Source: Longilinea arvoryzae
Lineage (GTDB): Bacteria > Chloroflexota > Anaerolineae > Anaerolineales > Anaerolineaceae
Reading direction: 5' to 3'
DNA: 64,000 nucleotides
Assembly (NCBI RefSeq): GCF_001050235.1
Contig: NZ_DF967972.1
Location: 806,171 to 870,170 of the forward strand
The position numbers and the translations under genes were made by a program. The notes under the pieces are model-generated. The model did not search any database. It was not told the DNA's origin and was given only the letters and a program-made list of their open reading frames with translations. Each line of letters begins with the position of its first letter. Position 1 is the stretch's first letter. Below are positions 1-45,944 of the stretch, piece after piece.

Positions 1-33
1 TTCAGCATTCAGCATTCATCATTCAGCAATTCT

Positions 34-636
34 TCAGATCTTGCAATCCGCCAGCGCTCCCAGGACACTGTTCAACGTCGGATAATCGTCCCGTAATAGC
101 GTAATGAGTTCTTGGGATGCCTTGTTGACCCATTCGTCATTTCCGCATGCCTTTTGCGCCGCAGCCGTCTTCTGAATGTGCGCCGCAAGCAGTTCTCCGA
201 TGGGCAGCTCGGCGGCTCGCAGCACGTGCCGGAAGTATCCGAACCTTCCCGCGGCGGTGAAGCGGCACAGCTCGGCCTCGCTGCACGGGTAGATCGCGTC
301 CAGGGTCAGCGGCGGGCGCGGCGGCAGCAGGTGCGAGACGGCCCCGGCCTGCTCGTAGCCCACGAACAACACGCTCACCTCGACCGGCACGTTGCGGTTC
401 TCGCGGTTGTCGCGAATGACCTCCTCGGTGATCGCGTCGGAGGTGACCAACTGGCGCACCAGCCCGTCGTCGTCGATGTGAATGTCGTGAATCAGCCCGA
501 AGACCTGCAGCCCATCGGCCAGCGGGATGCGCACCAGGTCGCCGAAGGCCGGCGCGCTCAACTGCGAAACGCGGCAGCCCACCACGCAGCCGGTGATGCC
601 CGAGCGCAGCAGGCGTCCAATCTCGATTTCAGCCAT
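34..636 (-). CDS. Hypothetical protein (about 200 aa) with an N-terminal beta-barrel-like segment that may be a HAS-barrel; encoded immediately downstream of the NurA-like gene with an 8-nt overlap; no Walker motifs
   Basis: Long ORF; internal ATG at 636 preceded by a purine-rich RBS (aagggaag); start overlaps the NurA stop, consistent with translational coupling. The N-terminus (IEIGRLL..GCVVGCRV..GDLVRIPL) is barrel-like and the C-terminus helical. Assignment is by resemblance only. Confidence 0.45.
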   Translation of the reverse strand: MAEIEIGRLLRSGITGCVVGCRVSQLSAPAFGDLVRIPLADGLQVFGLIHDIHIDDDGLVRQLVTSDAITEEVIRDNRENRNVPVEVSVLFVGYEQAGAVSHLLPPRPPLTLDAIYPCSEAELCRFTAAGRFGYFRHVLRAAELPIGELLAAHIQKTAAAQKACGNDEWVNKASQELITLLRDDYPTLNSVLGALADCKI

Positions 637-1816
637 TGTATCTTCCCTTTCCGCCGGATATGGCGTTCTTGGCGTTTTGTTTGTGCGAGCCGCCTTCCGG
701 CTCGATGCCCTGTTTGCGCAGTTCGAAGGCAATCATGTCGCCGATCTGGCGCTTCTCCTCGAAAGTCACCACGGCAATCTCGTGGGCGCGGTGCAGTGCG
801 TAGGGATAGGCCCTGGGGCCCATCATGCGGCACTGCTCGAGCAGCACGGCGTGAATCGCGCCGGTGACGGCCGCATCTTCGGCAGCCCAGGCCGGGATCT
901 CGACGCGCGCCAGGTAGGGTCTGGCAGCGCCGACGTTGATGTAGAAAAAGTGCGGGCGGGCGGGTTCGCTGAACTCGCGCGCGTCGGTCGATTCGAGGGC
1001 AAAGACCGCCGAACGCTGCCCCGGTTCGAGCAGGCTGCCCAACAGGGCCACGTCGCTGACGCGCCTGAACGGGCGGTGGTCCCTGGCATTCGCCAGGTCA
1101 TCGGCAGGCGCGTCGGCCAGTTCGAGCAGGCGCACCAGCAGGTCGGCTCCGGGCTTGTCGACGTAGCCCGCCATGGCGATCTCGCGCCTGGCCATCTCGT
1201 CCGAGACGGCCAGAAAATCGGCAAAGGCGTCCTTCACCGCCTTGTCGGCGTTTGCGCCGGCCAGGTCGCGCGGCTTGCGATACAGCAGCGGCCCGTCGAC
1301 CAGCGCCAACACCAGATCATCCTCCTGCCTGGCCTTCTCCAGCAGGAAATTGCGCTCGCGCAGGTCGCGCTTGAGCGCCACCAGGTCCTCGTCGATCATG
1401 CCGCCCTGGGCCGGGTAGAGCTCGTCGTCGCTAAAGAGGTGCCCCTCCACGGATTCGCTCGGCGCCCCGCCGCCGCCCATGCGGAACAGCCCGACGTTGA
1501 TCAGGCCGAAGATGACCTCGTCGTGCCGCGATGGAGTCACCTGCGAGCCGTCCGCCGCCAGCACCACCGGCCGGGCGTGCCCGGTGGGCGGGCCGGCGTG
1601 GAAGTCGAGCGGCTCGGTGAGCGGGCGGGCGCAGCGCAGGCCGAACTGGCGCGCGGCAATCTCGACGCGCTGCTGCAGGAAATCGAGCTCGCCGGCATAC
1701 TGGCGGAGCAGCGCTCTGGCTTTCTCCAAACGGTCGGTCAGCTCGCGCTGCTTCAGGCCGGCCTGCGAGGCGTTTTCCTGGATCTGGCGCTTGATATCCT
1801 GATAATTGACGGGCAT
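629..1816 (-). CDS. NurA-like 5'-3' nuclease domain protein
   Basis: 395-aa ORF with motifs resembling NurA catalytic boxes (VVLAADGSQ near the N-terminus, LALVDGPLLY mid-protein); the size is typical of bacterial NurA. High-GC coding bias. Confidence 0.5.
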   Translation of the reverse strand: MPVNYQDIKRQIQENASQAGLKQRELTDRLEKARALLRQYAGELDFLQQRVEIAARQFGLRCARPLTEPLDFHAGPPTGHARPVVLAADGSQVTPSRHDEVIFGLINVGLFRMGGGGAPSESVEGHLFSDDELYPAQGGMIDEDLVALKRDLRERNFLLEKARQEDDLVLALVDGPLLYRKPRDLAGANADKAVKDAFADFLAVSDEMARREIAMAGYVDKPGADLLVRLLELADAPADDLANARDHRPFRRVSDVALLGSLLEPGQRSAVFALESTDAREFSEPARPHFFYINVGAARPYLARVEIPAWAAEDAAVTGAIHAVLLEQCRMMGPRAYPYALHRAHEIAVVTFEEKRQIGDMIAFELRKQGIEPEGGSHKQNAKNAISGGKGRYNG

Positions 1817-1920
1817 GGCAGCCTCGGATGGAACAAATGTTTGAGGATATTATAGCGTGAATTGGGGAGGAGGTATGCGTTGATGAGGTATGGGGTATGC
1901 GGTATGGGTATTCGGAAGGA

Positions 1921-1993
1921 GCCGCCGCGTAGGTTGGGTTGAGTGGCGTGAGCCCATGCCCGGATTGGACCTATACCGGAACGAAACCCAACA
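1921..1993. repeat. Copy A of a dispersed structured element with conserved ends CGCGTAGGTYGGGTTGAG ... CGAAACCCRACRTT, whose terminal 8-bp arms (gttgggtt/aacccaac) can pair
   Basis: Direct comparison with 42003-42098 shows about 20/23 identity at the 5' box and about 12/14 at the 3' box, with a variable internal hairpin region. Confidence 0.6.
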
Positions 1994-2098
1994 TTCCAAA
2001 CCGCCGCCATCGGATTTCTGATTGATATGCCGATGGTAAAGATTCGTTCATTGAATTCAAGAAGAATTCATAATGCATCCCTATTCCTTTGAACGCAT

Positions 2099-2461
2099 TT
2101 ATCCGGCTTTCATAATCACATTCTCTATCCAAAATTTGCGATACTTTTTTCGGGTTTCCAACACATATGGTAACCGCTGGGCAACCAGTTCCTCTTGCGT
2201 CATACCGTCGAATTGTAAACCGCGTTCGGCGGCATGCTCGAAGAAATGATTGTCTGCGGTGTTACAGAAGTTGCATGCAGCGACGATGAAGTCCGGATTG
2301 TCGCGATTAGGATGGCCTTTCGGCAGCAAATGATCCCAGGAGAGTGAGAGCCAGGTGTCGAAGGATTTTGTGCCGTCCGCGCCGCAGTAGCGGCATTTGA
2401 AACCGTCCCGGAGGAGGATCGTGTATGCATAACCTCGCAGGGCGTCATCGAATTTGGGCAT
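2099..2461 (-). CDS. HNH endonuclease (small standalone, about 120 aa)
   Basis: C-x2-C ... WDHLLP ... N ... C-N-F-C-N arrangement typical of the HNH/His-Me finger; AGGAGG RBS 5 nt upstream of the ATG at 2461; sits in an AT-rich patch. Confidence 0.8.
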   Translation of the reverse strand: MPKFDDALRGYAYTILLRDGFKCRYCGADGTKSFDTWLSLSWDHLLPKGHPNRDNPDFIVAACNFCNTADNHFFEHAAERGLQFDGMTQEELVAQRLPYVLETRKKYRKFWIENVIMKAG

Positions 2462-2617
2462 GGAACGCCTCCTGAAAGACCTATTCGTTTGAAAAAGCAC
2501 TATCGATGTGAAAATAAATGATTCCGAATACTACGTATGTAGCACAAAAGGTAGGAAATAGGCAACCTGCCAAAGGTGAAAATCAATCGATTCCACGCGT
2601 TGTACAATGGAGACACT

Positions 2618-3169
2618 ATGGACGATTCCGCACTGAGTTTTCCCATCCTGCACACCGGGCGGCTGCTGCTGCGCGAACTGCGCCCGGCCGACATCGCCCA
2701 ATTCCACCGCATCAAATACGACCCGGCCATCGTCAGCCACTACTACGCCAGACCCAAAACGTACGCCGAATCGCTGGCCAAGCTGGAGGCGCTGAGGACC
2801 GACAACCGCACACGCGAGTCGCTGACCTGGTGCATCGCGTCGATCGGCGAGCCGGACACGCTGATCGGCACGATCTGCCTGTGGAATTTTCGCCTGGCCG
2901 AAGAGGCCGCCGAGCTGGGCTACGAGCTGCTGCCGGAGTACCAGCGTAAAGGCATCATGAGCGAGGCGGCGCGCGGCGTGATCGCGTTTGGCTTTGCGGA
3001 GCTGGGGCTGCGCCTGATCGACGCGTACCCGAACCCGCAGAACGCGGCGTCGTGCGGATTGCTGGAGCGGCTGGGGTTCGAGAGGGTGGGGGTGCTGGAG
3101 GAGGAAGAGGCGGGGGAAGTGCGGAAGTATGTCCGGTATGAGATGGTTTTCGAAAAGGGAAAGGCTTGA
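2618..3169 (+). CDS. GNAT family N-acetyltransferase (RimJ/RimL-like)
   Basis: Acetyltransferase fold signature (LLLRELRP..D, ..GY.L..E.QRKGIMSEA..); high GC like the core genome. Confidence 0.75.
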   Translation: MDDSALSFPILHTGRLLLRELRPADIAQFHRIKYDPAIVSHYYARPKTYAESLAKLEALRTDNRTRESLTWCIASIGEPDTLIGTICLWNFRLAEEAAELGYELLPEYQRKGIMSEAARGVIAFGFAELGLRLIDAYPNPQNAASCGLLERLGFERVGVLEEEEAGEVRKYVRYEMVFEKGKA

Positions 3170-3243
3170 TCGGAAATGAGCTGTTCAGGCCGCGGTTTAG
3201 GAAGGTCGCGCGGTCGGGAGACCGGCGACAGCGGGACTCGAAA

Positions 3244-5037
3244 TTAGCCAAAATCTTGTAATGGAATATTTAATTGATCAATCATCCAATCTGGAAATCT
3301 ATTCCGAAGCAAATTCTCTTGTGTTCCAATCGGAACGCCAATTACTAATATTTTCCTGGGTCTTGTCATTGCCACATATGCAGTTCTGACCTCTTCATTA
3401 TTCAAATCATTTGTTGTTATTTGGGTAATATTTCCTTTCGCCCCTCCTCTGGTGCTGTCATTTACAATATATAAGACGGCTTCGTATGTTTTTCCTTTCG
3501 CGGCGTGAATGGTCTCAATAGTAATTCCATCGACAACAGATTCTGGATCAGAAAATAGTTTAGAAACGGGTTCATCGTAATAGGCGGTAAATTTATGGCG
3601 ATTCATCACTTGGTATTGTTTTATACTAAGATCTAATTTACCTCTGTCAACCTCTCTCCAACTAGGATGGGCATCAAACCACTCATGAAGTTTTCGTGTC
3701 CCATTTATCAACCATAACCTAAGTGCATCACCAGAATTTGGGAGTAATTTCATAATTTGCCATATACCTAAAGGCCATCCCGGATTTAGGTTTCTCGCTT
3801 CTATTTGATTTTCCAGATCGAATTTAGAGATATATCGATCTCCAAATAATATCCGAACTAATGCAGCTTCTGATGAGTTGTGAGATCTGATAATGTCGCC
3901 TTTATCGCGGTAATATGCAACCTGAGCGAGTAGCCGTGTAATAGCATGGTTCCAAGGATCACCCATATCAATAATATCTCTTAATTTTAATAATTGCCTA
4001 TTTGTCCGAACTAAAACAGATATCTCAGATGGTTTTATCTCTAATCCCTGCCTCTCACATAAATTGATAAAATCATTCTTTATGGTTGATAAATGATTTG
4101 GATCATATGTCACTAGTTTTGGGGGCAAACTGAAATTTGCATCAGTTCCTATTGCTTGTGATATATTTCGCAGTGAACTTGAAAAATTCTTAGTTAAGTT
4201 ACAAATTAGCTGTGAACTACGCCGATTCTGATCCAAATAATATGGTTCTTGCCATTCCAATTGACTTGTTTTTCTCATGAATATATCAGGTCTTGCGTCT
4301 CTCCACTCATATATTGCTTGATCTGGATCACCAACTAGCATGACCTCTGAAAGGCCATTCATTACGAGCAAATCGATAATCCTCATTTGAATTTCAGATG
4401 TATCTTGAGCCTCATCAATGATCATTTCTGGAAAACGAGTTGATAGAGATTTGGCAATTCCGGGATACCTTTCGAGAATTCTCATTGTAAAATATTCAGC
4501 ATCCGATTGAGTTGCAAGTCCCATTCTATTGAATCTATTTTTAAGGATCCGACAATGAGTAAAATCAAAAGGACAATTCACTAATCCACCAATAAGTCTG
4601 CCATTAATGTCGTATGAGAAATTCTCCAACTTGCATGAATAACATTTTTGATTTCCCCAATATAAATTGAGTTCTTTTTGATTCCATACATTGCTTCCCA
4701 TTCCAATTAAATTAGGCCTACCAGAACAGCCCATAACGAGATGACCGAATGGAAGAAATATAAATGTATTTATGAAATGATCAATTGTTCCAAGAAAATG
4801 TGGAAACGGAGGAGAGGGACTAAACCCATCGTTTATAAGATCACCGCTAATTTCAGAGTGAGCCACATTTGTGAACGATAGAGTCGCGATACCTGATGAT
4901 TGTCTTTTCCAATCCTTCATTCTTCGCATGAAACGAGTAGAAACAGTGAGAGTCTTTCCACTTCCAGGACAAGCAATTACAACAAATTTTCCTGCTCTAG
5001 TTACTGCCGGTAGTTGTTCGGGTGATAAAATAACCAT
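3244..5037 (-). CDS. UvrD/PcrA-like superfamily-1 DNA helicase (GajB-like partner of an OLD-family nuclease)
   Basis: Walker A (ACPGSGKT), Walker B (IIDEAQDTS), motif III (VGDPDQAIYEWR), motif V/VI (TIHAAKGKTYEAV, YVAMTRPRKILV). Low GC (about 40%). Confidence 0.85.
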   Translation of the reverse strand: MVILSPEQLPAVTRAGKFVVIACPGSGKTLTVSTRFMRRMKDWKRQSSGIATLSFTNVAHSEISGDLINDGFSPSPPFPHFLGTIDHFINTFIFLPFGHLVMGCSGRPNLIGMGSNVWNQKELNLYWGNQKCYSCKLENFSYDINGRLIGGLVNCPFDFTHCRILKNRFNRMGLATQSDAEYFTMRILERYPGIAKSLSTRFPEMIIDEAQDTSEIQMRIIDLLVMNGLSEVMLVGDPDQAIYEWRDARPDIFMRKTSQLEWQEPYYLDQNRRSSQLICNLTKNFSSSLRNISQAIGTDANFSLPPKLVTYDPNHLSTIKNDFINLCERQGLEIKPSEISVLVRTNRQLLKLRDIIDMGDPWNHAITRLLAQVAYYRDKGDIIRSHNSSEAALVRILFGDRYISKFDLENQIEARNLNPGWPLGIWQIMKLLPNSGDALRLWLINGTRKLHEWFDAHPSWREVDRGKLDLSIKQYQVMNRHKFTAYYDEPVSKLFSDPESVVDGITIETIHAAKGKTYEAVLYIVNDSTRGGAKGNITQITTNDLNNEEVRTAYVAMTRPRKILVIGVPIGTQENLLRNRFPDWMIDQLNIPLQDFG

Positions 5038-5047
5038 GCTAACCTTT

Positions 5048-7075
5048 TTAATCTGTTTCTATCACGGCTACATGTTCGATAACTTCAATAATATATTGCG
5101 GAATTGTAAATTGGGTGACGAAGTTACCTTGCTGATTTCGTTTGTTGAGTATAGTAGCCAGCCTTTGAGCAAACTCCGCCTTTGTATCTTTACAAGCTTG
5201 CCAAAAATAAATTGCTTTGAGACTAGGATCATCGATTGCAGCAAATAATCCTCTCAATTCAGCCGTTTTCCTTGGATGAATAGGATCAAGTGCTGATAAA
5301 AGCACAGGAAGATTTAGATCGATTTGTGCTAACTCAAATTCAAAAGTCTTATATGCCATTTTCACTAACAGGTTTTCATTTTGCAGACTCTGGGCTCTTT
5401 CTGCTCTTGGAGAAATATGCCCATTTGGTAACTTTGTCAATATCTCTTCAGGACTCATTTCATCAGTAATTCTGTTTACATCATCCTTTGAGGTGCAACG
5501 ATCATCATCAGTCATAATCACAGATCGAATGTTAATTCTTTTATTTTCATCTGGATCGTTGAAAAGAAGTGCGAAAGGTTCAAAGGCGGTTCCAGATATG
5601 TTTACTACCTCTATTGCATTTTGATCTAACCTTCTATTCATGCGATTTGCAAATATTGGCAGCAATAACGCTTCAGAGATTCCTTCTACAAATATTACGC
5701 CTCTAGAAAAGAAGAGCTGAGATTTGGTAGTATCCAAATATCGTCGTAAGTCATCCTTTTGATCCGGAAGGAGGGGACAATTTATTAGTCCAGTTACAAT
5801 TACTTTATCTTCCTCATTGTGGTTAATCAGTTGAATATTATCAATATCAGCTCTTGATACAAGAGTAGGTGAGTGCGATGTTACAAAGACTTGAACTGAG
5901 TTTGGGGCTGCTCCTCCATTTTGATTTGAGCAAACCCTCTTGAAAAAGTCAAACACCAAATTTTGTAATTGAGGGTGCAGATGGGATTCGGGTTCCTCAA
6001 TAAGAAGAGTGTTGTATGAACATGTTTCGACCTTTTTTAATTCTTGTAAGTCACCAAGTACTGTTCCCATATAAATCAGATTGTTATACCCCATACCATT
6101 CTGATCTAGCTCAAAATAAATAGTATGCTCCAATATTTCCGAATAAATTTCGAGGCCAATATTTTCTTTTTCTTGTTCGGACAACTCACTTATAGAAATA
6201 TAAACACTATTACCCACTACTGTTATTTTTCCATTCAATATCTGTTCAAGTGAATTATTTTGTGCAATCATTGATTGCCATGTTTTTTGGTTTAGAACTG
6301 CTTTTGTTTTATTATTATTGGGTGGAAGTAATGCACGTAAAGAATCGGTAACCCTACCAAAATCAGGTAAAACCAGCCCCAGATTGATATTCTGCTTTAG
6401 CCGGTTCCCTTCAATATCAAGAAGATGATCATTTATTACGGTGCTTGCCTGTTTCACCTTAGGTTCGTTTAAAATTTTTCGATTTGCCGTTTTTATATGG
6501 GCTAGTATTGCCTCTTTTTCATCATCGTTTTCTATCAGCTTTCTAACAAGCTTTCCAATCCTGCTACCCTTGCCTGGACGCAAATCACTTTCCGCATCAC
6601 GTAAAGCCCCAAGGTAATAATGATTTATGAATTCTAAAGTGCCGTAAGAAACAGGCTGACCTTGTTTTTCTCCACCCCATATCTGAGTATTTATTTTTTC
6701 AAATCCTTTAGTAGATTCCTTTTTTACCCTGATATGTAGTTGTGCAGTAAAAACAGCTCCTTCTACAACGAGCAATTCATAAAACCCAGCTTGTTCATCT
6801 TCATTCAAGTCAATAAAATTCAAATCAAAAGATATTTCACTCGCATAGATTCCATTTTCATCAAGATGAAAATCAGAGGTAGTAACAAAAATTTCTCTTT
6901 TCCCTATCCCCAAGCTAAACACAATCCTAAGCGCATCAATTAGGGACGATTTGCCTGAGTTATTTTCACCAATTATGATATTTACACCTGGCTGAAATGT
7001 GAAAACAATCCCAGTTTCATCAAAGCATCTAAAATTTTTAATAGCGATTTTTTGTAGATACATTTTTCCTCTCAA
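5048..7075 (-). CDS. OLD-family AAA/ABC-type ATPase with a C-terminal TOPRIM nuclease domain (GajA-like, Class 2 OLD)
   Basis: N-terminal Walker A (IIIGENNSGKSS), ABC-like Q-loop/signature, Walker B (LLIEEPESHLHPQ) and H-loop (VFVTSHSP); the C-terminus carries the TOPRIM motifs (VIFVEGISEALLLP, IMTDDD). Followed within 10 nt by the UvrD-like gene. Low GC. Confidence 0.85.
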   Translation of the reverse strand: MRGKMYLQKIAIKNFRCFDETGIVFTFQPGVNIIIGENNSGKSSLIDALRIVFSLGIGKREIFVTTSDFHLDENGIYASEISFDLNFIDLNEDEQAGFYELLVVEGAVFTAQLHIRVKKESTKGFEKINTQIWGGEKQGQPVSYGTLEFINHYYLGALRDAESDLRPGKGSRIGKLVRKLIENDDEKEAILAHIKTANRKILNEPKVKQASTVINDHLLDIEGNRLKQNINLGLVLPDFGRVTDSLRALLPPNNNKTKAVLNQKTWQSMIAQNNSLEQILNGKITVVGNSVYISISELSEQEKENIGLEIYSEILEHTIYFELDQNGMGYNNLIYMGTVLGDLQELKKVETCSYNTLLIEEPESHLHPQLQNLVFDFFKRVCSNQNGGAAPNSVQVFVTSHSPTLVSRADIDNIQLINHNEEDKVIVTGLINCPLLPDQKDDLRRYLDTTKSQLFFSRGVIFVEGISEALLLPIFANRMNRRLDQNAIEVVNISGTAFEPFALLFNDPDENKRINIRSVIMTDDDRCTSKDDVNRITDEMSPEEILTKLPNGHISPRAERAQSLQNENLLVKMAYKTFEFELAQIDLNLPVLLSALDPIHPRKTAELRGLFAAIDDPSLKAIYFWQACKDTKAEFAQRLATILNKRNQQGNFVTQFTIPQYIIEVIEHVAVIETD

Positions 7076-7567
7076 ATAGCTTAATCAGACTGGTTGCCAG
7101 ATTTCAAACCCCATTTTCTCTAGGAATTTTGTTATCTATAAACAAACTCATTAAAATAATTAAAGGGTTACATAAATTTACGCGATTGCTTATAAGTTTG
7201 ACTTTAACTTTATAAACGAACATTAACATTTGTCAATAGTATTAACTTTAATCATTCTATAACCTATACCAACGATGTCAAGCTGATTTTTGGATCATTT
7301 TTAATTGTTCTTATCCTAAGTTTCATTCCTCTCTTATAAGATAACAAAATCACCACCGCGTTCACTGCCGCAGTTTACGCCTCATTGGTAACCTCTGCTT
7401 CCGCACCTTTTTACCGTCTTACTCACTTGACGTGTCCATCTCCTGGTGCGTTTGTTGCCACCTCCGTCGCTATAACCGAATTTGAAATGATTAATTGAAA
7501 AAACTCCGCTCTCGGCGCATAATATATTCAGAAACCACCCCCTCGTTTCCCGTAGAAGGAGGGCGCC

Positions 7568-7873
7568 ATGTCCGTGACGGTCGAAGAACTCGTTTCCGCC
7601 TGCTTCGATGAGCTGCAAATGGGGCAGCGCTTCGTGCCTTATATCCGGCGCGCCGAAGAGGCCGGCTTTCCGCAACTAGCCAAGCTCTTCCGCGTCCTGG
7701 TCGCCAGCGAAACCGTCCGCGATACGCTTCTCCGCCAGGGGCTGCTGCACCACGCGGACCTGGAAGGGGACTATTTCGTCTGCCCACACTGCGGGCTGAT
7801 TTTTCATTTCGAACATCCCGATCAATGCCCGGTCGACGAAACCCCCGGCGCCACCTTTATCGCCATCCGGTAA
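7568..7873 (+). CDS. Hypothetical small protein with a CPHCG...C/H metal-binding (zinc-ribbon-like) C-terminus
   Basis: Strong RBS (gaaggaggg) before the ATG; 101 aa; C-x2-C plus downstream His/Cys. Confidence 0.5.
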   Translation: MSVTVEELVSACFDELQMGQRFVPYIRRAEEAGFPQLAKLFRVLVASETVRDTLLRQGLLHHADLEGDYFVCPHCGLIFHFEHPDQCPVDETPGATFIAIR

Positions 7874-7903
7874 CACCCTGCTCCCGCGCGAAAGGAGTCA
7901 GCC

Positions 7904-8020
7904 ATGTCGCTGCTGCCCGCCTTCTCCATGCCTTTGCTGCCCTCGCTGAAGAAGCTGCCGGGCGATGCGAAGTGCGACGCCAGGCGCTTACAACCCTTTC
8001 CCCATCCTCACGTATATTGA
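7904..8020 (+). CDS. Candidate 38-aa small ORF (MSLLPAFSMPLLPSLKKLPGDAKCDARRLQPFPHPHVY), absent from the supplied ORF track
   Basis: AAAGGAG Shine-Dalgarno 6 nt upstream of the ATG; sits between two other small RBS-preceded genes on the same strand. Confidence 0.25.
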   Translation: MSLLPAFSMPLLPSLKKLPGDAKCDARRLQPFPHPHVY

Positions 8021-8056
8021 ATCATGACAAGTCAACTCAACGAAAGGGAATCAACC

Positions 8057-8272
8057 ATGTCTACTGAATCTTGCGAACACGGACACACCCGCACCCGGGT
8101 CGTCCGCCAGGACGGCGCGTCGGGAGCAGTGTACGGACTGGGCTTCATCGGCGCCTGCGTGTACTTCATCGGGCAGGCCACCACATTCTGGCTGGGCGTG
8201 CTGGGCTTCCTCAAGGCGCTGGTCTGGCCGGCGTTCTTGGTGTTCGAGGCCCTGAAGGCGCTGTATCATTAA
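8057..8272 (+). CDS. Hypothetical small membrane protein (72 aa, two predicted TM helices)
   Basis: RBS (gaaagggaa) before the ATG at 8057; hydrophobic GLGFIGACVYFIG...WLGVLGFL segments. Confidence 0.45.
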   Translation: MSTESCEHGHTRTRVVRQDGASGAVYGLGFIGACVYFIGQATTFWLGVLGFLKALVWPAFLVFEALKALYH

Positions 8273-8375
8273 GAAGAAAGAAGAACGACTGACGTCGTTA
8301 CTACAGATTCAACCGGTGGTAAGGGCAATTCATGAATTGCCCTTACCATCGGCCTGTTCATCCTGAATATCCTGT

Positions 8376-9209
8376 TTATCCTGTCTTCTTGGCCGTCACG
8401 TACCAGTTGTGGGGCATGTCCGGCATTTTCACCGGGATGACCGGCAGCGTCCAGCGGCCGTAGTGAGCGTCGGGCGCGCCGGGCTGCGTCATGGATGCCG
8501 TCCAGCCCAGCCCGGCCAGGAAGCCCTCCGGGTCGTCCAGCCCGCCCAGCCAGGGCGCGCCCTGGGCGGCCTGCATCTCGATCCAGGCGTGGGTGATGGG
8601 CGAGGTGAGCGTGGCGTGGTTGACGCAGTCGAAGCCCAGCCATGAGCCGGGCGCGGACAGTTTGTTGATATCGGTCAGCAGGTGGGTGATCGCCTCATCC
8701 GGCAGGTAGAACAGCAGGCCTTCCAGCAGCCACAGGGTGGGGCGTTCGGAATAGAAGCCCATGGTCTGGAGCGGCGCCTGCCAGGGTTTGCTCAGGTCGA
8801 CCCCGATGGCTTTGCGCTGGTGGGCCGGCTTTGCGCCGGCGGTATGCAGCGCCTGCTGCTTGTAGTGCAGGACAACCGGTTGATCCAGCTCGTAGATGCT
8901 GGTGCCCAGCGGCCACTCCAGGCGGTAGGCGCGCGTGTCCAGGCCGGCGGCGACGATCACCACCTGGCGGATGCCTTCTTCGCGCACCACGCGCTGCATG
9001 AAATCGTCGAAGTAGCGGGTGCGGATGACCATGGGGGTCACGCTGCCGCCGCGGGATTGCAGCCATTCGGCGCCTTCCGGACCGGCCAGGGCTTCGGCCC
9101 ACGGGTCGTGAAAGAGCGCGTCGGGGCGGGTGCTTTCCTGGGCGCGCGCGGCGGCGGTCCAGCGGGCGGTGAGACCCAGCGATAACTGCGGCTTGGTATT
9201 TTCCGGCAT
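8376..9209 (-). CDS. Class I SAM-dependent methyltransferase (TIGR00027/leucine-carboxyl-MT-like O-methyltransferase family)
   Basis: VIVAAGLDTRAYRL / LWLLEGLLFYL motifs typical of this methyltransferase family; paralogous to 11557-12426. Confidence 0.75.
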   Translation of the reverse strand: MPENTKPQLSLGLTARWTAAARAQESTRPDALFHDPWAEALAGPEGAEWLQSRGGSVTPMVIRTRYFDDFMQRVVREEGIRQVVIVAAGLDTRAYRLEWPLGTSIYELDQPVVLHYKQQALHTAGAKPAHQRKAIGVDLSKPWQAPLQTMGFYSERPTLWLLEGLLFYLPDEAITHLLTDINKLSAPGSWLGFDCVNHATLTSPITHAWIEMQAAQGAPWLGGLDDPEGFLAGLGWTASMTQPGAPDAHYGRWTLPVIPVKMPDMPHNWYVTAKKTG

Positions 9210-9419
9210 ATCGAACTCCGTTGTCGAAACGATCGGGAAACTGTATTCAGTATAAATCAAAATGGGGGAAGAAGGTGAAGAGTGATGGGTGAAGAGGGAA
9301 GAGGGAAGAGGTATGCGGGATGGGGGATTTGGAAAGAGGGTGAGGGGGGAAGCGGGAAGAAAACCATATACAATAGAAGATAGCGATCGTCCAAATACGA
9401 ACCATTTTCAAAGATAAAG

Positions 9420-9833
9420 ATGCCCAAAAATAAGATCGACCAACCTTTCAGCGCGCGCGAACGCGAGGTCATGGATTTCCTCCTGCAGGGGAAACCCAAC
9501 AAGGAAATCGCGCTCGGGTTGGGAATTACCGAGCGCACGGTGGAGTCGCACCTCAGCTCCATCTACGCCAAGTTGGGCGTTTCATCGCGCACCGAAGCGG
9601 TGATCCGCTTATCCGAAAGGTCACTGCGGGAATCCACAGGCGGATCTCCAGGAAATCCTCAATTGAAAACCGGCCTCCGGCGAGCTAGCCTGTCCTCAAA
9701 GGCCGTCCTTCCAGTGGACCGTTTCCGGAGGTTCAGAACGAAAAATTTTATTCGCATCTGCATTGTTCTTCTGCTTGCCATCCTGATCATCACCCTGGTG
9801 ATCGTCGCTTTTTCCTTGCTGCGGCAGGCCTGA
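9420..9833 (+). CDS. LuxR/GerE-family HTH transcriptional regulator with a C-terminal transmembrane anchor
   Basis: SAREREVMDFLLQGKPNKEIALGLGITERTVESHLSSIYAKLGV is a canonical LuxR-type HTH; the C-terminal ICIVLLLAILIITLVIVAF is a TM helix. Confidence 0.8.
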   Translation: MPKNKIDQPFSAREREVMDFLLQGKPNKEIALGLGITERTVESHLSSIYAKLGVSSRTEAVIRLSERSLRESTGGSPGNPQLKTGLRRASLSSKAVLPVDRFRRFRTKNFIRICIVLLLAILIITLVIVAFSLLRQA

Positions 9834-10041
9834 TCGTCTCTTTTTCAAGTCCGAAAATTTCTGGTCATTCCCAATCATCCTCGTTCCTGATGAACGTCGA
9901 TTTGCGGAAAATGACGCGAGCTGCCACTTTCCATTCAGGTGAATCATGTACCGGAAAAGGAGGTGAATTTCTGATTCCATTTCCATCCCAATCCAGAATG
10001 CTAATTTATACAAGCTAACCTTCCATAAGGAGAAAAATCCC

Positions 10042-10563
10042 ATGAAAAGCAAATTCCTCTTGCTCACGGTGTTGGCCATTGTGGTTTTCGTATCCGCAAC
10101 GCCAGTTCGAGCGGAAACCCTCATTCCTCCTTCCAGCAATCCAAATGCCCAGGTCGGCCGGGTCGAATCCTTTGAAAGGGTCACCTGGGATAAGGCATCG
10201 CTGATTGATGGATATTCAACGCTGGCGACGGGATGTAAGACCTATACGCTGGGGGTAAACGGGTATAGCGCGGTTGGTATAAATATTTGGAGCTATGCCT
10301 GGAATATCAAGTGGTGTTACAACGGCACATCCATCACTTCTCTGAGCAAATGGAGAACCGTATGGGCCAATTACGGCTGGAGTTTCAAGGGGGATATATC
10401 CGATGACCAATCCGGCGGAGTCAATCAGTCTTCCTACTGGCATTATGCTCAGGGAGATTTCTGCTTCATCGAAACCTACACCTGCATAACCCATTCCTAC
10501 CCCTGGGTGGACCAAACGGTTTATGGGAGCGGGAATTATTCAGGAAGCGCGGGAGGGAATTGA
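10042..10563 (+). CDS. Secreted Trp/Tyr/Cys-rich protein of unknown function (signal peptide; 4 Cys)
   Basis: N-terminal signal peptide (MKSKFLLLTVLAIVVFVSATPVRA); aromatic-rich mature domain with no recognised catalytic motifs. Confidence 0.6.
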   Translation: MKSKFLLLTVLAIVVFVSATPVRAETLIPPSSNPNAQVGRVESFERVTWDKASLIDGYSTLATGCKTYTLGVNGYSAVGINIWSYAWNIKWCYNGTSITSLSKWRTVWANYGWSFKGDISDDQSGGVNQSSYWHYAQGDFCFIETYTCITHSYPWVDQTVYGSGNYSGSAGGN

Positions 10564-10564
10564 T

Positions 10565-10726
10565 ATGCTGTACGCGTATCTGGCGCTCATTCCGCTGGCC
10601 GTTGGGGGCGTGGCCCTGTTTTTCAAAGGCCGGAAGACGTGGCATAAAATCACCGGGATGACCCTGTTTGCGCTGGCCATTCTGGCTTTGTTCCTGATCC
10701 CCACCATTTTCAGGCAAGCGGCCTGA
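10565..10726 (+). CDS. Small 2-TM membrane protein (about 53 aa), translationally coupled to the upstream secreted protein (TGATATG overlap)
   Basis: ATG 1 nt after the upstream stop; two hydrophobic helices (LALIPLAVGGVALFF, MTLFALAILALFLIP). Confidence 0.45.
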   Translation: MLYAYLALIPLAVGGVALFFKGRKTWHKITGMTLFALAILALFLIPTIFRQAA

Positions 10727-10806
10727 TCCAGGCGGCCTGGCAATGTAAAACGACGGGAAGAATTCGATTCTTCCCGTCGTTTGTTGATTCCGTGCGCTTT
10801 TCTTCT

Positions 10807-11556
10807 TCATTCCGTCCTACCATCAAAAAAGCGAGCCAGGTCGCGATTTTGGATGCGGCCCAGATCGCGGCGCAGCCGTCCGGCGGCGAACGGCCGGCCG
10901 TGGGCCGGATAGATGCGGCGCGCACCGGCGTCCAGCAGTTTTTGCCAGCTCCGGTAGGCCTGGTCCATGTCGGTCATGAACACGCAGCAGTGGCGCGTCC
11001 CGGCCCAGGTGAGAAAATTGGCGGCCGCGTCACCGCAGAAGGCTTCGCCGCTGTCGAGGACGACGGCCAGATGGTCGATGCAGTGTCCCGGGGTATAGAG
11101 CAGCGCTCCGGGCACGCCCAGCCGGCGCAGGAGCGCGTCGTCGTCGCCGCCCACGCGGAGGTCGCGTTCGCGCAGCGTAAAGGGCGGAAACGAAAGCGAC
11201 CAGCGCGGATCGAAGCGCGCCTTGAGGCCGGCCAGGAAGCGGATGCGCCGGTTGACGTAACCGCCGCCGCGCGAGCGGTCGTTGGCGCCGCCGCGCAGCA
11301 GGTCGCCGGCCAGCCGGTGGGCGATGAGGATCAGGTCGGCGTCGCGGGTCAGTTCGTTGAGGAAACCGGCGTGATCGTCGTGATGGTGGGTCAGCGCCAG
11401 GCAGCGCACCTGCTCGAGCGGGATGCCGGCCTTTGCCAGCCCGCGCCGGTAGGCGGGGTAGTCGTGCTGGTAGCCGGCGTCGATCTGCAGGAAGCCGCCG
11501 TCGCAGGGCAGCAGGTACACGTTGGTCAGGCTGAGGGGAATGCAAACGGGCTGCAT
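10807..11556 (-). CDS. MBL-fold metallo-hydrolase
   Basis: THHHDDH metal-binding motif and a downstream His/Asp pattern. Confidence 0.85.
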   Translation of the reverse strand: MQPVCIPLSLTNVYLLPCDGGFLQIDAGYQHDYPAYRRGLAKAGIPLEQVRCLALTHHHDDHAGFLNELTRDADLILIAHRLAGDLLRGGANDRSRGGGYVNRRIRFLAGLKARFDPRWSLSFPPFTLRERDLRVGGDDDALLRRLGVPGALLYTPGHCIDHLAVVLDSGEAFCGDAAANFLTWAGTRHCCVFMTDMDQAYRSWQKLLDAGARRIYPAHGRPFAAGRLRRDLGRIQNRDLARFFDGRTE

Positions 11557-12426
11557 TTACACCCTCCCCAGCAGGATGCCGTAACCGTTCACCACCGCCC
11601 GCCAGGCGTTGGGGCCGCGGAAATAAGCCGCCTTCAGGTCCGCCGCGTTGACGTCCCTGGCCGCGCGGAAGCCGCGCGCCAGCAGGAAGGCCTCGCCGGT
11701 GCCTTTGGGAATGCCGAAGGTCAGCCCTTCGCCGGTCATGAAGCGGTAGCGGCGCATGTTGCCGACTTCGCGCTGCCTCCCGGCCTCCTCCAGCGCCTCC
11801 CGGTAGAGGTAATCGAAGACGATGGCGCTGCCCGGGGCCGAATTCCGGACCACGAAATCCAAAGTCGCGTCCACCGCCGCGGGGGTCAGGTACATGCTCA
11901 CGCCCTGCCAGATGAACAGGCTGGTCCGGGCGGGGTCGAAACCGGCGGAAAGCAGTCGGTCGGCGAGGGACTGGGTGTTGAAATCGACCGCGACGTAGGT
12001 GACGTGGGCGGGGACGGAACCAAAAATCCGGCGCACTTTTTCCAGCTTGTCGGCCTGGGTGGCGGGATGATCCACCTCGAAGGTCTTTACCCGGCCGGAC
12101 AGGTCGAAGCGGTAGGCGCGTGAATCGAAACCCGCGCCCAGAATGACCAGTTGCTGAATGCCGGCCGCGATGAAGCCGCTCAGGACGTCGTCGATGTAGC
12201 GCTCGCGCGCCGCCAGGAATCCGTTCACGCCCGGCCCGCGCAGTTCGGCGTAACCGCTGCGGATGAAAAAGCCGAGCACGTGGTACATCCAGGCCGGCAC
12301 GAATTGCCTGGCGTAGGGGTCATAACAGATGCGCGCCGGCGCGGGTTTGCTGCTTTCGACGGCGCGGGCAATGGCAATACCCATGGCCGTCACGCTGGTT
12401 TGGTTTTTTCGCATGGCGTTCCTCAA
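11557..12426 (-). CDS. Class I SAM-dependent methyltransferase (same family as 8376-9209)
   Basis: LVILGAGFDSRAYR / LFIWQGVSMYL motifs; abuts the MBL hydrolase gene with no gap. Confidence 0.75.
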   Translation of the reverse strand: MRNAMRKNQTSVTAMGIAIARAVESSKPAPARICYDPYARQFVPAWMYHVLGFFIRSGYAELRGPGVNGFLAARERYIDDVLSGFIAAGIQQLVILGAGFDSRAYRFDLSGRVKTFEVDHPATQADKLEKVRRIFGSVPAHVTYVAVDFNTQSLADRLLSAGFDPARTSLFIWQGVSMYLTPAAVDATLDFVVRNSAPGSAIVFDYLYREALEEAGRQREVGNMRRYRFMTGEGLTFGIPKGTGEAFLLARGFRAARDVNAADLKAAYFRGPNAWRAVVNGYGILLGRV

Positions 12427-41960: not shown

Positions 41961-42002
41961 AGAATTCACAGGATAGGCAGGATGTTCAGGATTGGAATCT
42001 TC

Positions 42003-42098
42003 GCGTAGGTCGGGTTGAGGGACGAGCAATCAAGATTGTGGCCGGTGAAAAGTATCGTTGAGTTTGGATGGCCTGTCCCGAAACCCGACGTTATGGCC
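42003..42098. repeat. Copy B of the dispersed structured element (CGCGTAGGTCGGGTTGAGGGACG ... CCGAAACCCGACGTT)
   Basis: Shares both terminal boxes with 1921-1993 and lies at the left edge of a low-GC patch. Confidence 0.6.
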
Positions 42099-42258
42099 AC
42101 GATTATGCAATGTCGGTTCTTCAGGGCGATATAGGCTATTCCGACACATTTCTCTATCCCGCCCCTCCGCCCATCCAGGGTAGGACCGACCTGTAAAATT
42201 GAGTTATCGAAGGAATTTCAGTGTGTGCCGCCCACCCGGCCTTTACGGAATTCCCGCA

Positions 42259-43590
42259 TTAATTAAGCTTGCAGAATTCACTCGTTGCGCTGTATGACAC
42301 ATTCATGAAACCCCAATCGCCGATGTGGCCTTTGAGGACATCCGGATAATCGGTATCCAGGATCTTAACCGCTTCTAGACAGGAGGTCATGGCCTTGTGG
42401 GTAACTTCGTATTGCGTGGCAAACTCCTTCGCCACAACGACAAATTCGTTGCCCGGCGTGCCGTCCGGAAAAGATTCGCTCATCTCATGAATGACCTCAT
42501 CCGCCATATCGACCCGATTTTGCGAAAACCAGATCACCACGATGCGGAAAAACGCAAAGGCCTTTTGGTAAGGCTCGGCTAATTCCGTTTGATTTTCAGT
42601 CAATTCATAAGTTGTGAAATAGCTGGAAAGATTCGAGTCTCTGGCAGCAATTTCATAATATGCAATCGCCATCATCAGATTGCCCTTCTTGGATGCGTCA
42701 GCACCATCTCCAAGATAATGGACCCGATCGTCACCTGGCGGTAGATCGGAATAAGAATACTCAAAATTCTTTCCATTCCAGGCAAATACATCTATTTCGT
42801 CCCGGCTTGCACCGCCCCAGAACCCTGTCGAATTTCCAGTCAGGACCAAAACCTCTTTGGTTCCATCGCCATCCTGGTCATCCAGCATGATCTCGCTACC
42901 GACTAGGCCACCGCCAAGAAATATTTCTTTCCATTGATTTTCGCGCCACCCGAATGCATAATATTTCGTTCCCCATCCAATAGTCGCCCTGATTTTGACA
43001 ATGATAAATGGAAGTTCCTTTTCAAAAATTTGTTCTACGAACAGAATGTCACCAGAAGAGACATCCTCAGTTTGAAAGGATTGGACCAGTCGATACGCAT
43101 TTGTACTGCATTGGTAAATATTTATAAGATTTATATCGTCCGAAGGCGAGCCTTCGTTAATTATTGTAATTGACCCGCTCACAACAATTTCTTCCAGCGC
43201 ATCCCCGTCCAAATCCGCAACCGCTGCGCTGACTCTGAGCAAATCCGTGGATGCAAGCAGCGATTTCAGGCTGGCAGGATCTCCTCCATGGTTTACATAA
43301 TCCAAAATGGCGGCATCCAGCTCAACCAGGTTGCTGTAGCCTTTGAGTTCAGCGCCGCCGGTCAAGACCGGGCATCTGTGTTCCGGGGTGGGTGTTGAGG
43401 TTGCCTTCATCTCAGGCGTGTTCGTTTTCGTCTGGATTGCCCTGGTCGCTGTGCCTGTCGCTAGGACTGGCGGAATATTTTGGCCAGGAGCACAGGCCGC
43501 TAACGCTATCATTGCCATGAGTAGAAAGAAAATAACGGGATGAAAATTATTACGATAATATTTCATCTTTTTTGCCTGTTTTCGAGTCAC
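42259..43590 (-). CDS. Secreted lipoprotein with FG-GAP/VCBS-like repeats (LDGDALEEIVV, DQDGDGTKEVLV)
   Basis: Signal peptide with lipobox (LAACA), Thr-rich linker; low GC. Confidence 0.55.
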   Translation of the reverse strand: MTRKQAKKMKYYRNNFHPVIFFLLMAMIALAACAPGQNIPPVLATGTATRAIQTKTNTPEMKATSTPTPEHRCPVLTGGAELKGYSNLVELDAAILDYVNHGGDPASLKSLLASTDLLRVSAAVADLDGDALEEIVVSGSITIINEGSPSDDINLINIYQCSTNAYRLVQSFQTEDVSSGDILFVEQIFEKELPFIIVKIRATIGWGTKYYAFGWRENQWKEIFLGGGLVGSEIMLDDQDGDGTKEVLVLTGNSTGFWGGASRDEIDVFAWNGKNFEYSYSDLPPGDDRVHYLGDGADASKKGNLMMAIAYYEIAARDSNLSSYFTTYELTENQTELAEPYQKAFAFFRIVVIWFSQNRVDMADEVIHEMSESFPDGTPGNEFVVVAKEFATQYEVTHKAMTSCLEAVKILDTDYPDVLKGHIGDWGFMNVSYSATSEFCKLN

Positions 43591-43750
43591 AAATAGGTCG
43601 GAAAACTGGCTGGCAAACTGAAACGATTTTTATTGATACGCTTTATTTAAGCCATCATTTTCCATTATACAATTGCTTTTTTAACCCATGAAATAAACCT
43701 CTCACCCTTAACGGCCCCATTGTCAGGATTGGGTCGCAGGGGAGGCTGGT

Positions 43751-43948
43751 ATGAATTGTCAATGGACCTATGTTTCCCCGAAGACCCGGCGTTATGGCCG
43801 CCCGGTGGATTTGGGCACGGCGGATGGGATCAAGGAGCGCTGCCGTTCCCGCATTTTGGCGGAAAGCATCGATGTCGCCTGGACTTTAATCGGACCGGAG
43901 GACGGATTTACCCCCAATAAAAGCATTGTTGAATTCACTTCTCGATAA
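43751..43948 (+). CDS. Possible small protein (65 aa)
   Basis: GGGAGG RBS 5 nt before the ATG; located in a low-GC intergenic stretch; no motifs. Confidence 0.3.
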   Translation: MNCQWTYVSPKTRRYGRPVDLGTADGIKERCRSRILAESIDVAWTLIGPEDGFTPNKSIVEFTSR

Positions 43949-44038
43949 AGTAGGTCCTTCTTGATAAACGATTGGGGGATTAGGTCTGGGAGCTTAAGGG
44001 TCCAACCCATTTACAAATTCTTCGCCAAAAAGTCTCAA

Positions 44039-45622
44039 TTATCTTAGCTTGAATACCGAGAGGATCTTGGCTCCGTCCAACTCAACTGAATACACTTCCC
44101 GATACTCGCTGGGGTAGGACTTCTTCCAGCGATAGTTGATGATCAGGTACCTGGCCTGATCGTCGGCTTCGATTCCAAGCCAGTTCAATCGTTTTTCATC
44201 CGCCTCTGGAAGGATGAAAGTATAACCTCCCGGGGTGGTTTCCGAAATATAATCGATGACCGGGCTGGGGTCCGTCCGGCTGATATATTCCAGCCCCTGG
44301 CGGTAGGACAGCCCCCAATAATCCAGTTCGTAGCGGCTCTTGAGATCTGCCAGGTTCCCTCCCGCCAGGCGGTTGAAGTACAACTGCTCGTATGGATGCG
44401 CCTGGATCATGAAAACGGCGGTGGAGACGAATGTGGCGCCGAGAATGAGAATCAAACCCAGCGAAGCCACATTGAAACGGCCGAATTTGGCGCTCAACTG
44501 GGCCAGCGTCTTTTCGAAGCCCCAAAAAGCCAACAACAAAAAAGCCGGATAGATAAAGAACAGGTGCCTCCACGAGTCGTAAAGGACTGATTTCAGAAAA
44601 ATGACCAGGAGCAGGGGCACGAAAAACCAGGCTGCGATCGCGAGTAATTTCAGCGCCTGGTTTTCAAAGAAACCGCGAACGGTAAAATGGATCCCGGCGA
44701 TCCACTTGATGGCGCCGGTGAAAAACAGAACCGAATAAAAAATGGGCGTCGAAATCAGGATCCAAACAATCGAGTAGAACCAGGGCAGCTCGGTGGCGGA
44801 GTACGAGGTCCCCATGAACAACACGGGGAGATTCCAGCGAAAATGGCTGAACTCGTTGAGCGCCAGGATGAAATTACCGATTGGATTCTTCCACAGGATC
44901 GGCCAGAATAGAACGCTGAAAAACGCGAACAGGAGCAGGAACAGGGCCAGTTTTGGCAGACCTGCGCGCATCTTCTTCTTCCAGCCCTCGGGCGAACGCA
45001 TAAAGCCCACAATCAGGGTGAGGACGGTGAGAAATGGGATCAACAACCCGGCGAGGCGGATGGTGGTGGTAATCGCCGAAGAGACGGCCAGAAAAATCAG
45101 ATAAACGAATTTTCGCGTGTCCACGTAAACCATGAAGAATGTAAAGCTGATGATAAAGAAAACCAGCAGCGGGATGTCTTTCGTGTTGTAGAAGGCATTG
45201 TCGAAGATGCGTGGACTCAGGATCAGGGCGGCCGTACACAGGAGCGCTGTAATCGCGTTCTTGAATATTCTTTTGGAAAGGATGTAAAAGAAAACCGTTC
45301 CAACGAAGAAGGTCAGAAATGTGAGGAGGTGCCGCAAGAAGTAGATATCCTGATGGGACGCCGGGGGAAAAAACTTCAGTTCAGCTCCCAGCAGGAAGAG
45401 CTCGAAGAATGGGCCGTAGAAGCGGTCTGCCATGCTCACCAGCGGATCTTCGTGCCCCAGGATGAATCTCAGATTGGCCACCCCGATATCTCTCTGGAGC
45501 GGTTCATCCCAGGATACGCCGTAATCTCTGTAAATGGAAAGACCGGCGATCAGGAAAACGGAAAACAACAGGATGGGGAGAATATTCTCCCTGAGCTTGC
45601 GCAGTGCCAGAGTCATGCTCAT
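44039..45622 (-). CDS. Polytopic membrane glycosyltransferase, GT-C fold (GT39/ArnT/PMT-like)
   Basis: About 12 TM helices with an N-terminal first-loop acidic motif region (YGVSWDEP), as in dolichyl-phosphate-mannose / ArnT-type transferases. Confidence 0.55.
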   Translation of the reverse strand: MSMTLALRKLRENILPILLFSVFLIAGLSIYRDYGVSWDEPLQRDIGVANLRFILGHEDPLVSMADRFYGPFFELFLLGAELKFFPPASHQDIYFLRHLLTFLTFFVGTVFFYILSKRIFKNAITALLCTAALILSPRIFDNAFYNTKDIPLLVFFIISFTFFMVYVDTRKFVYLIFLAVSSAITTTIRLAGLLIPFLTVLTLIVGFMRSPEGWKKKMRAGLPKLALFLLLFAFFSVLFWPILWKNPIGNFILALNEFSHFRWNLPVLFMGTSYSATELPWFYSIVWILISTPIFYSVLFFTGAIKWIAGIHFTVRGFFENQALKLLAIAAWFFVPLLLVIFLKSVLYDSWRHLFFIYPAFLLLAFWGFEKTLAQLSAKFGRFNVASLGLILILGATFVSTAVFMIQAHPYEQLYFNRLAGGNLADLKSRYELDYWGLSYRQGLEYISRTDPSPVIDYISETTPGGYTFILPEADEKRLNWLGIEADDQARYLIINYRWKKSYPSEYREVYSVELDGAKILSVFKLR

Positions 45623-45944
45623 TCCTTTGTAGATGGCATCTTGAGCCAGGCCGACCAAAAGCTTTTAATTTGGCTGTAAGGCATCTCGCGTCCGCCTTGC
45701 AGCAATTCAGTGACGTTTACTTCTTTTGATTCAAAAATCTTCCAGATATTAGTGAGGGCTAAATGCCCTCATCAGAGCCTCAACCGTCAAGGATAGTTGC
45801 CGAACAATTGTACGCGGATTGTGAAAATTGCGGAAGGTTTGCCGGTATGCGACAGAGACTCATTTGGGGCAGTTCTCGAAGACAGGCCCGTTTGCCCTCT
45901 TTCGAGACGCGCACCCCGCGTATAATGATTGGAAAACAAGAGGA

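Follow-up and report, generated by a model that had tools for sequence, protein, structure and literature searches.

The 64,000 nucleotides (nt) of DNA analysed here (the window) come from Longilinea arvoryzae, a member of the Chloroflexota, class Anaerolineae, and hold two adjoining minus-strand genes, one for an OLD-family protein with an ATPase and a Toprim part and the other for a UvrD-like helicase. Taken together, the results below indicate that the pair is very probably a two-gene Gabija (GajA-GajB) anti-phage system, which came from a donor of low guanine-plus-cytosine content (GC) and was inserted into the chromosome as a patch of ~4.1 kb (about 3244-7345). Gabija is a nuclease-plus-helicase antiviral system, among the commonest of its kind, and occurs in about 15% of sequenced genomes.

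The gene pair and its products

The first gene, gajA-like, occupies 5048..7063 of the minus strand, starts with the ATG at 7063 and encodes 671 amino acids (aa). The second, gajB-like, follows at 3244..5037 on the same strand, also starts with an ATG and encodes a 597-aa protein of superfamily 1A (SF1A), a helicase-like (deoxy)nucleoside triphosphatase, or (d)NTPase, of the UvrD/PcrA/Rep type. In the list of open reading frames (ORFs) the longest form of gajA starts at a TTG (5048..7075, minus strand, 675 aa), and the original prediction had put the end of the gene there, at 7075. Translation almost certainly begins at the ATG of 7063 and not at the TTG, because the ribosome-binding site GAGAGG (7068-7073, minus strand) precedes it, homologues align from M1, and the identical database protein has 671 aa. 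This protein, 100% identical to the gajA product, is annotated as ‘ATP-dependent endonuclease of the OLD family’ of Longilinea arvoryzae, and the gajB product is likewise 100% identical to an annotated protein of the same species, both being encoded on a contig of 4.15 Mb. The two genes had also been described as adjoining, on the same strand and 10 nt apart, and both ORFs are indeed found on the minus strand around a spacer (5038-5047, minus strand) of exactly 10 nt from the gajA stop to the gajB ATG. The junction reads TAA-AAAGGTTAGC-ATG, and the AAAGG it contains is the likely ribosome-binding site of gajB. The genes are probably co-transcribed and, we infer, translationally coupled. Chance ORFs are ruled out, because both frames are long in DNA of 36% GC and because of the E-values obtained with profile hidden Markov models (HMMs).

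Against the PADLOC GajA model PDLC00071, the gajA product gives an E-value of 2.5e-146, with residues 1-667 lying on profile positions 1-583 of 588, and GajA models account for 24 of the 25 PADLOC matches listed for this protein. Pfam finds AAA_15 over residues 1-402, the ABC-ATPase part of the protein (5858..7063, minus strand), and OLD-like_TOPRIM (PF20469, E 3e-14) over residues 451-521, the Toprim core (5501..5713, minus strand), which holds E460, E464, G491, D519 and D521; the downstream catalytic residues T573, E575 and K628 are encoded within 5180-5347 of the same strand. The motifs of the ATPase are a Walker A at G32-S39 (with K38), a signature-like stretch at Q321-N328, a Walker B at L353-E359 and an H-loop at H397. 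An alignment of 21 GajA homologues was used both to judge invariance and as a profile against the GajA of Bacillus cereus (BcGajA; 8jq9_B), with residue definitions taken from PMC10781630 (active site) and PMC6755086 (the OLD set of Burkholderia pseudomallei, Bp). K38, E356/E357, H397, E460, E464, G491, D519, D521, T573, E575 and K628 are all invariant in it, and the profile aligns to BcGajA across the Walker A, Walker B, H-loop and Toprim. The nucleotide-binding site is complete, with K38, E356/E357 and H397 aligned to BcGajA, and so is the Toprim site, with its invariant glutamate (E460), its invariant glycine (G491) and its DxD (D519/D521).

The AlphaFold2 (AF2) model of GajA has a predicted local distance difference test score (pLDDT) of 84.2, and its top PDB match in Foldseek is a GajA (8u7i_A, E 2.9e-21), ahead of the Thermus scotoductus OLD protein (TsOLD) and the retron Eco8 OLD. 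At the sequence level, the best PDB matches of the C-terminal region are the Class 2 OLD nucleases of B. pseudomallei and Xanthomonas campestris (Xcc), 6NK8 and 6NJV (E 8e-16 and 9e-15, respectively), followed by GajA entries. The insertion at ~245-315 is enlarged, variable and of low conservation, and the model shows a small alpha/beta element at ~250-315; a Pfam scan of residues 245-328 gave no meaningful match.

The gajB product matches the PADLOC GajB model PDLC00138 with an E-value of 4.6e-203, residues 2-581 lying on profile positions 2-579 of 581, and Pfam recognizes UvrD-helicase, AAA_19 and UvrD_C in it. The full set of SF1A motifs is present: I (22-29), Ia (54-59, TFTN-type), II (206-212), III (234-248), IV (270-274), V (509-521) and VI (554-562), with a GSGKT Walker A at 25-29 and a DEAQD box at 208-212. 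The first 200 aa are matched better by the B. cereus GajB (BcGajB; E 4e-4) than by Rep or PcrA (E about 1). The NCBIfam models uvrD, pcrA and rep reach 74-83 bits on GajB, against cutoffs above 900, and no NCBIfam equivalog exceeds its cutoff on either protein of the pair. The AF2 model of GajB has a pLDDT of 86.8. Since every residue checked is present at its defined position, the earlier statement that Walker, TOPRIM and helicase motifs are all readable in the sequence holds for both proteins.

Between motifs Ia and II, GajB carries a module of four cysteines (residues 132-162; 4552..4644, minus strand), arranged as C132-x2-C135 ... C155-x6-C162. Among 119 full-length GajB homologues this 4-Cys module is an all-or-none character, the complete set being present in 54, a single Cys in one and none at all in 64, and the sequence flanking the cysteines is otherwise variable. 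This distribution suggests a putative clade-specific structural metal site. In the AF2 model the module is laid out as a CxxC knuckle, a beta-hairpin at 140-150 and a helix from 160, with a local confidence of only 47-83, and this predicted layout resembles a treble-clef zinc site. No domain was matched by a Pfam scan of the segment, and a literature search for a zinc or cysteine site in GajB found none. The module, which is not in the solved B. cereus GajB, is the mildly new detail of this locus.

Both proteins had been reported as about 100 aa longer than the B. cereus pair, and the differences are 93 aa for GajA and 103 aa for GajB. GajA homologues are mostly 655-710 aa long among the best 120, GajB homologues mostly 560-600 aa among the matches listed, and the Clostridium tetani homologue is colinear over its full length. 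Within a large clade, then, proteins longer by ~100 aa are the rule, and the added length is no peculiarity of this locus.

Base composition, origin and upstream region

The change in base composition around the pair is abrupt. GC is 0.37 in gajB, 0.36 in gajA and 0.28 in 7064-7345, as opposed to 0.63 in 2576-3243, 0.50 (49.5%) in 7346-7567 and 0.63 in 7568-9000, so that genes of 36-37% GC stand between flanks of 62-65%. The original prediction, which set an island of about 40% GC against flanks of about 64%, had therefore the contrast right and the island too high, given the 36-37% of the genes and the 28% upstream of them. GC at third codon positions (GC3) tells the same story more sharply, with 0.27-0.28 in gajA and gajB and 0.83-0.86 in three neighbouring genes, and this difference strongly supports the horizontal acquisition proposed earlier.

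The nearest relatives of the pair are in metagenome assemblies only, with identities of 80%/77%, 64%/57% and lower. The closest of them (L003) matches the window at 78.6% DNA identity over 3280-7089 only, i.e., over the two ORFs and 26 nt upstream with the ribosome-binding site, and the contig that carries it has a GC of 37%; what is transferred is thus no more than the two genes, and they came from a low-GC organism. Among 185,579 species-representative genomes the best relative has 31% identity, the source genome itself being absent from the returned matches. The cassette, a minimal immune unit of two genes, offers a textbook case of very recent import across phyla, here into an Anaerolineae genome.

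As to the vehicle, a megablast of window positions 1-12000 against plasmids and phages gave no match, and hence no evidence from sequence that the region is a plasmid or a prophage. A transfer RNA search of the window found none, and thus no such integration site, and no integrase was found near the pair in the window. Flanking repeats were considered as att sites or target duplications and rejected, as a 9.5-kb self-comparison gave only short imperfect matches at chance level (e.g., 1882-1908 with 9298-9324, 81% over 27 nt).

Upstream of gajA lies an AT-rich region of foreign appearance, ~280 bp long (7064-7345, minus strand, 28% GC), and gajA and gajB are probably transcribed together from a promoter within it. 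The best promoter-like site, TTGACA-16-TAGAAT at 7281..7254 of the minus strand, is an 11/12 sigma-70-like match ~190 nt upstream of gajA. The adjoining 7346-7567 is host-like, holds the ribosome-binding site and a promoter-like site of a divergent gene starting at 7568, and probably belongs to that host gene. An AT-rich leader of 480 bp (7076-7560) had been put forward as the likely promoter region; the idea survives for 7064-7345, where the 11/12 site lies, and fails for 7346-7567 with its 49.5% GC, and the promoter assignment itself is based on one consensus match. Beyond 7089, the region upstream of gajA shows no conservation with the closest relative.

A relaxed Rfam scan of 2900-7700 gave nothing, nor was any Rfam family found in the window, and thus no riboswitch or small RNA in the leader. 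A structured leader RNA was rejected (fold z-score of -1.9, unremarkable), as were small leader ORFs of 26-41 aa, whose sequences are implausible. Pfam gave no significant match for three short plus-strand ORFs that overlap in different frames (7568-7873, 7825-8067 and 8024-8272) just upstream of the cassette; they could represent a single gene with a frameshift, or else have arisen by chance in high-GC DNA.

The case for Gabija and its rivals

The identification made from the raw sequence as Gabija is borne out on several sides. The PADLOC models for GajA and GajB are by far the best and cover both proteins at full length, the expected Pfam families (AAA_15, OLD-like_TOPRIM and UvrD) are found, gajA is followed directly by gajB on the same strand, the motifs are complete, and the AF2 model of GajA is closest to solved GajA. 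Other OLD families match far more weakly, and the Walker and Toprim residues remain intact on proper alignment, which were the two points on which the identification could have fallen.

The pairing itself is conserved. The OLD gene has a UvrD-like gene of 581-599 aa directly after it at all five of the distinct homologue loci, which belong to two metagenomic lineages, Sporomusa, C. tetani and an acidobacterial metagenome-assembled genome. The neighbours vary from locus to locus and are in many cases defence or mobility genes, among them HsdR with GmrSD, TIR, McrBC, a DNA methylase, integrases, a transposase and a resolvase. Ten flanking ORFs of the window gave no PADLOC match. With no such match in the flanks, and with different neighbours in each relative, the system consists of the two genes. 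By its sequence, then, the locus is an intact, recently imported and typical Gabija of the common long form, i.e., an ordinary member of a known system.

In the literature, Class 2 OLD and GajA are taken as two names for the same thing (PMC10568477). Gabija is a 4:4 GajAB complex, in which the Toprim nuclease of GajA cuts DNA and is restrained by nucleoside triphosphates (NTPs), and GajB hydrolyses (d)NTPs (PMC10957863). According to a preprint (bioRxiv 10.1101/2023.05.02.539174), this hydrolysis is triggered by DNA termini from GajA nicking, and a preference for DNA ends lacking RecBCD has been described (PMC12407980). The residues needed for the published scheme are all present at the locus. 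By analogy with the published B. cereus and Pseudomonas Gabija and with the Bp and Xcc Class 2 OLD nucleases, GajA would tetramerise through its ABC-ATPase and dimerisation regions and bind GajB to give the 4:4 complex, with the Toprim nuclease kept inactive at normal cellular NTP levels. During phage infection, nucleotide depletion and/or exposed DNA ends lacking RecBCD would serve as the trigger, and GajA would nick or cleave DNA by two-metal catalysis, metal A being held by E460, D519 and D521 and metal B by E464, T573 and E575, with the participation of K628. GajB would then sense the resulting DNA ends and hydrolyse (d)ATP and (d)GTP, so that activation is reinforced and phage replication blocked.

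Several observations weigh against this interpretation or parts of it. Identity to the B. cereus proteins is low (~13-16% for GajA and 18-19% for GajB in structure alignments), and phmmer against GajA reaches only E ~7e-10. The Toprim region is nearer to that of the Bp and Xcc enzymes, for which a non-specific activity without inhibition by ATP is reported, and therefore sequence specificity and NTP control cannot be confidently transferred to this protein; the behaviour of the clade may be Bacillus-like (ATP-inhibited, site-specific) or Bp/Xcc-like (non-specific). In Foldseek, UvrD, PcrA and Rep are the best matches of the GajB model (E ~1e-23), with BcGajB behind them at ~5e-15. Since the model is globally nearer to these helicases, the GajB of this locus, larger than the trimmed Bacillus GajB, may be a more complete helicase than BcGajB. 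Finally, promoter-like sites are not significantly enriched in the upstream region (21 versus 14.8 +/- 3.8 expected), and the genes, with a GC3 of 0.27, sit in a host of 58% GC, where they may not be expressed.

The last two points lead to the rival explanation that survives best, namely that the cassette is intact but silent or non-functional here, a recent passenger that is unexpressed or poorly translated. The extreme mismatch in codon usage (GC3 of 0.27 against about 0.85), the leader unconserved with relatives and the promoter evidence consisting of a consensus match only speak in its favor. On the other hand, AT-rich DNA readily gives rise to stop codons, and yet neither ORF is interrupted; no catalytic residue has been lost, each gene is preceded by a good ribosome-binding site, and the 11/12 sigma-70-like match has the right orientation for gajA, ~190 nt ahead of it. 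On balance, such silence seems rather unlikely, although it deserves to be kept in mind.

Far less probable is that the pair, with its UvrD-like helicase and its nuclease, is a DNA-repair or recombination module and not an immune system. This could be argued from the GajB model, more like UvrD, PcrA and Rep than BcGajB, from the presence nearby of a gene with a NurA domain (629-1816), and from the Bp and Xcc Class 2 OLD enzymes having no demonstrated phage target. However, foreign composition and patchy distribution, with no close relative among the species representatives, point to an accessory trait; the relatives lie among restriction, McrBC, TIR and mobile-element genes; both proteins match defence-curated HMMs over their full length; and the NurA gene, with a GC like that of the host, does not adjoin the pair.

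That the OLD protein belongs instead to PARIS, a Class 3 OLD retron, Septu or a stand-alone Class 1 OLD, with the helicase there by coincidence, has hardly any probability left and is already largely refuted: the weak cross-matches that could suggest it (PADLOC AriA at E 1.4e-39, the NCBIfam retron Eco8 effector and PtuA, and the retron Eco8 OLD and PtuA also listed by Foldseek for the GajA model), together with the HNH ORF at 2099-2500, are outweighed by an AriA match that does not extend beyond the ATPase region (residues 1-402) and falls short of that of GajA by about 100 orders of magnitude, by scores of 57.5 bits against a cutoff of 250 for the retron Eco8 effector (NF038234) and 51.5 against 500 for PtuA (NF041760), by the lack of a reverse transcriptase among the neighbours and of a non-coding RNA by Rfam (retron), by the lack of AriB among the neighbours and the fusion of Toprim to ATPase in one protein (PARIS), by the HNH ORF having no PADLOC match, a different GC and an opposite-strand GNAT gene between it and the pair (Septu), and by the helicase gene 10 nt downstream, in a pairing kept in 5/5 relatives (Class 1).

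With the Gabija reading thus preferred, it may be asked whether the long-form clade is a mechanistically distinct subtype, marked by the 4-Cys metal site, a fuller UvrD-like GajB and an enlarged ATPase insertion in GajA. We regard this as a tentative idea that is more doubtful than not. If true, the module could bind zinc in a treble-clef-like site or, possibly, form an Fe-S site, with consequences such as real unwinding, or metal- or redox-dependent control. Otherwise little is changed by the finding, as standard defence-finder tools would call the locus. It does lie in the Anaerolineae, a class poorly studied for phage defence, but its research value is only in the all-or-none 4-Cys module and in the larger, more UvrD-like helicase of the clade. 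Among the published work found, all solved structures and most of the biochemistry come from the short Bacillus form, so that a member of the long form could reveal if GajB is ever a true helicase, or under the control of a metal.

Neighbouring features and comparison with known systems

The neighbours of the pair in the window are a NurA-domain protein, the HNH ORF, a GNAT acetyltransferase and LCM-type methyltransferases. The NurA-domain ORF (629-1816, minus strand; PF09376, E 4.7e-22) has a host-like GC of ~65-70% and no PADLOC match, and no HerA-like partner was identified for it within the examined part of the window. The small HNH-endonuclease ORF (2099-2500, minus strand) is a borderline Pfam match (E 2.7e-4), and the patch around it (1901-2575) has 48.6% GC, a value that fits neither the host nor the Gabija cassette, which suggests that this neighbourhood took up foreign DNA more than once. 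On the other side of the pair there are two paralogous LCM-type (leucine carboxyl methyltransferase, PF04072) O-methyltransferase genes on the minus strand, at 8376-9260 (E 1e-51) and 11557-12426 (E 3e-51), ~2.3 kb apart; between them, 9000-10750 has 48-53% GC and ORFs without family matches. In or near intergenic DNA, a near-perfect palindrome (8313-8352, 21-nt arms) and a perfect hairpin (10748-10782, 16-nt arms and a 3-nt loop) could be terminators or protein-binding sites.

A second lower-GC region of the window, at 42000-46000, has 47-52% GC versus about 60%. It includes, on the minus strand, an ORF for a PMT_2-like membrane glycosyltransferase (44039-45658) and a 443-aa ORF without Pfam match (42259-43590). 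At its edge lies a putative aminoglycoside-resistance gene (45828-46820, plus strand), which matches the streptomycin (aminoglycoside) adenylyltransferase family PF04439 with an E-value of 2.1e-106.

Of the systems already described, the Gabija of B. cereus VD045 (8SM3, 8J4T, 8JQB and 8U7I) is alike in its gene order, A then B, with a short gap. BcGajA shares the ABC ATPase with an inserted dimerisation region, followed by the Toprim and a helical domain, and the residues correspond one by one (K38 to Bc K35, H397 to H320, E460 to E379, G491 to G409, and D519/D521 to D432/D434). BcGajB shares the Walker A, the DEAQD box and the segment F(L/I)GT(I/N)D(H/G)F...PF. In spite of these similarities, identity is about 13-19% in structure alignments, and the two pairs differ in size. 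Of the 93 additional residues of the window GajA, ~60 are at 113-340, in the dimerisation-type insertion of the ATPase, and of the 103 additional residues of its GajB, ~34 lie between motifs Ia and II, the 4-Cys module among them, and ~40-50 in the C-terminal half.

The Bp and Xcc Class 2 OLD enzymes (6NK8 and 6NJV; Schiltz et al. 2019, PMC6755086) also have a UvrD-like gene directly downstream. Mapped through the 6nk8 and 6njv alignments, the seven absolutely conserved residues of the Bp OLD (E400, E404, D455, D457, T506, E508 and K562) correspond to E460, E464, D519, D521, T573, E575 and K628 of the window protein. The Bp and Xcc enzymes differ in belonging to another phylum, with only their C-terminal regions solved, and in being reported, unlike Bacillus GajA, as non-specific nucleases on which nucleotides have little effect.

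The Class 1 OLD of Thermus scotoductus (6P74) has the same ATPase-Toprim architecture, and is the best full-length PDB profile match of GajA (E 1.8e-25) and the second in Foldseek. It is, however, a stand-alone protein of 528 aa without partner helicase, whereas the window GajA has the residues of the Class 2 helical domain and an adjoining helicase gene. Similarly, E. coli UvrD and Rep and Geobacillus PcrA, the top Foldseek matches of GajB, share with it all SF1A motifs and a full, four-subdomain-like size, but what sets the window GajB apart from them is its GajB-like N-terminal segment, its 4-Cys insertion and the OLD nuclease gene with which it is paired.

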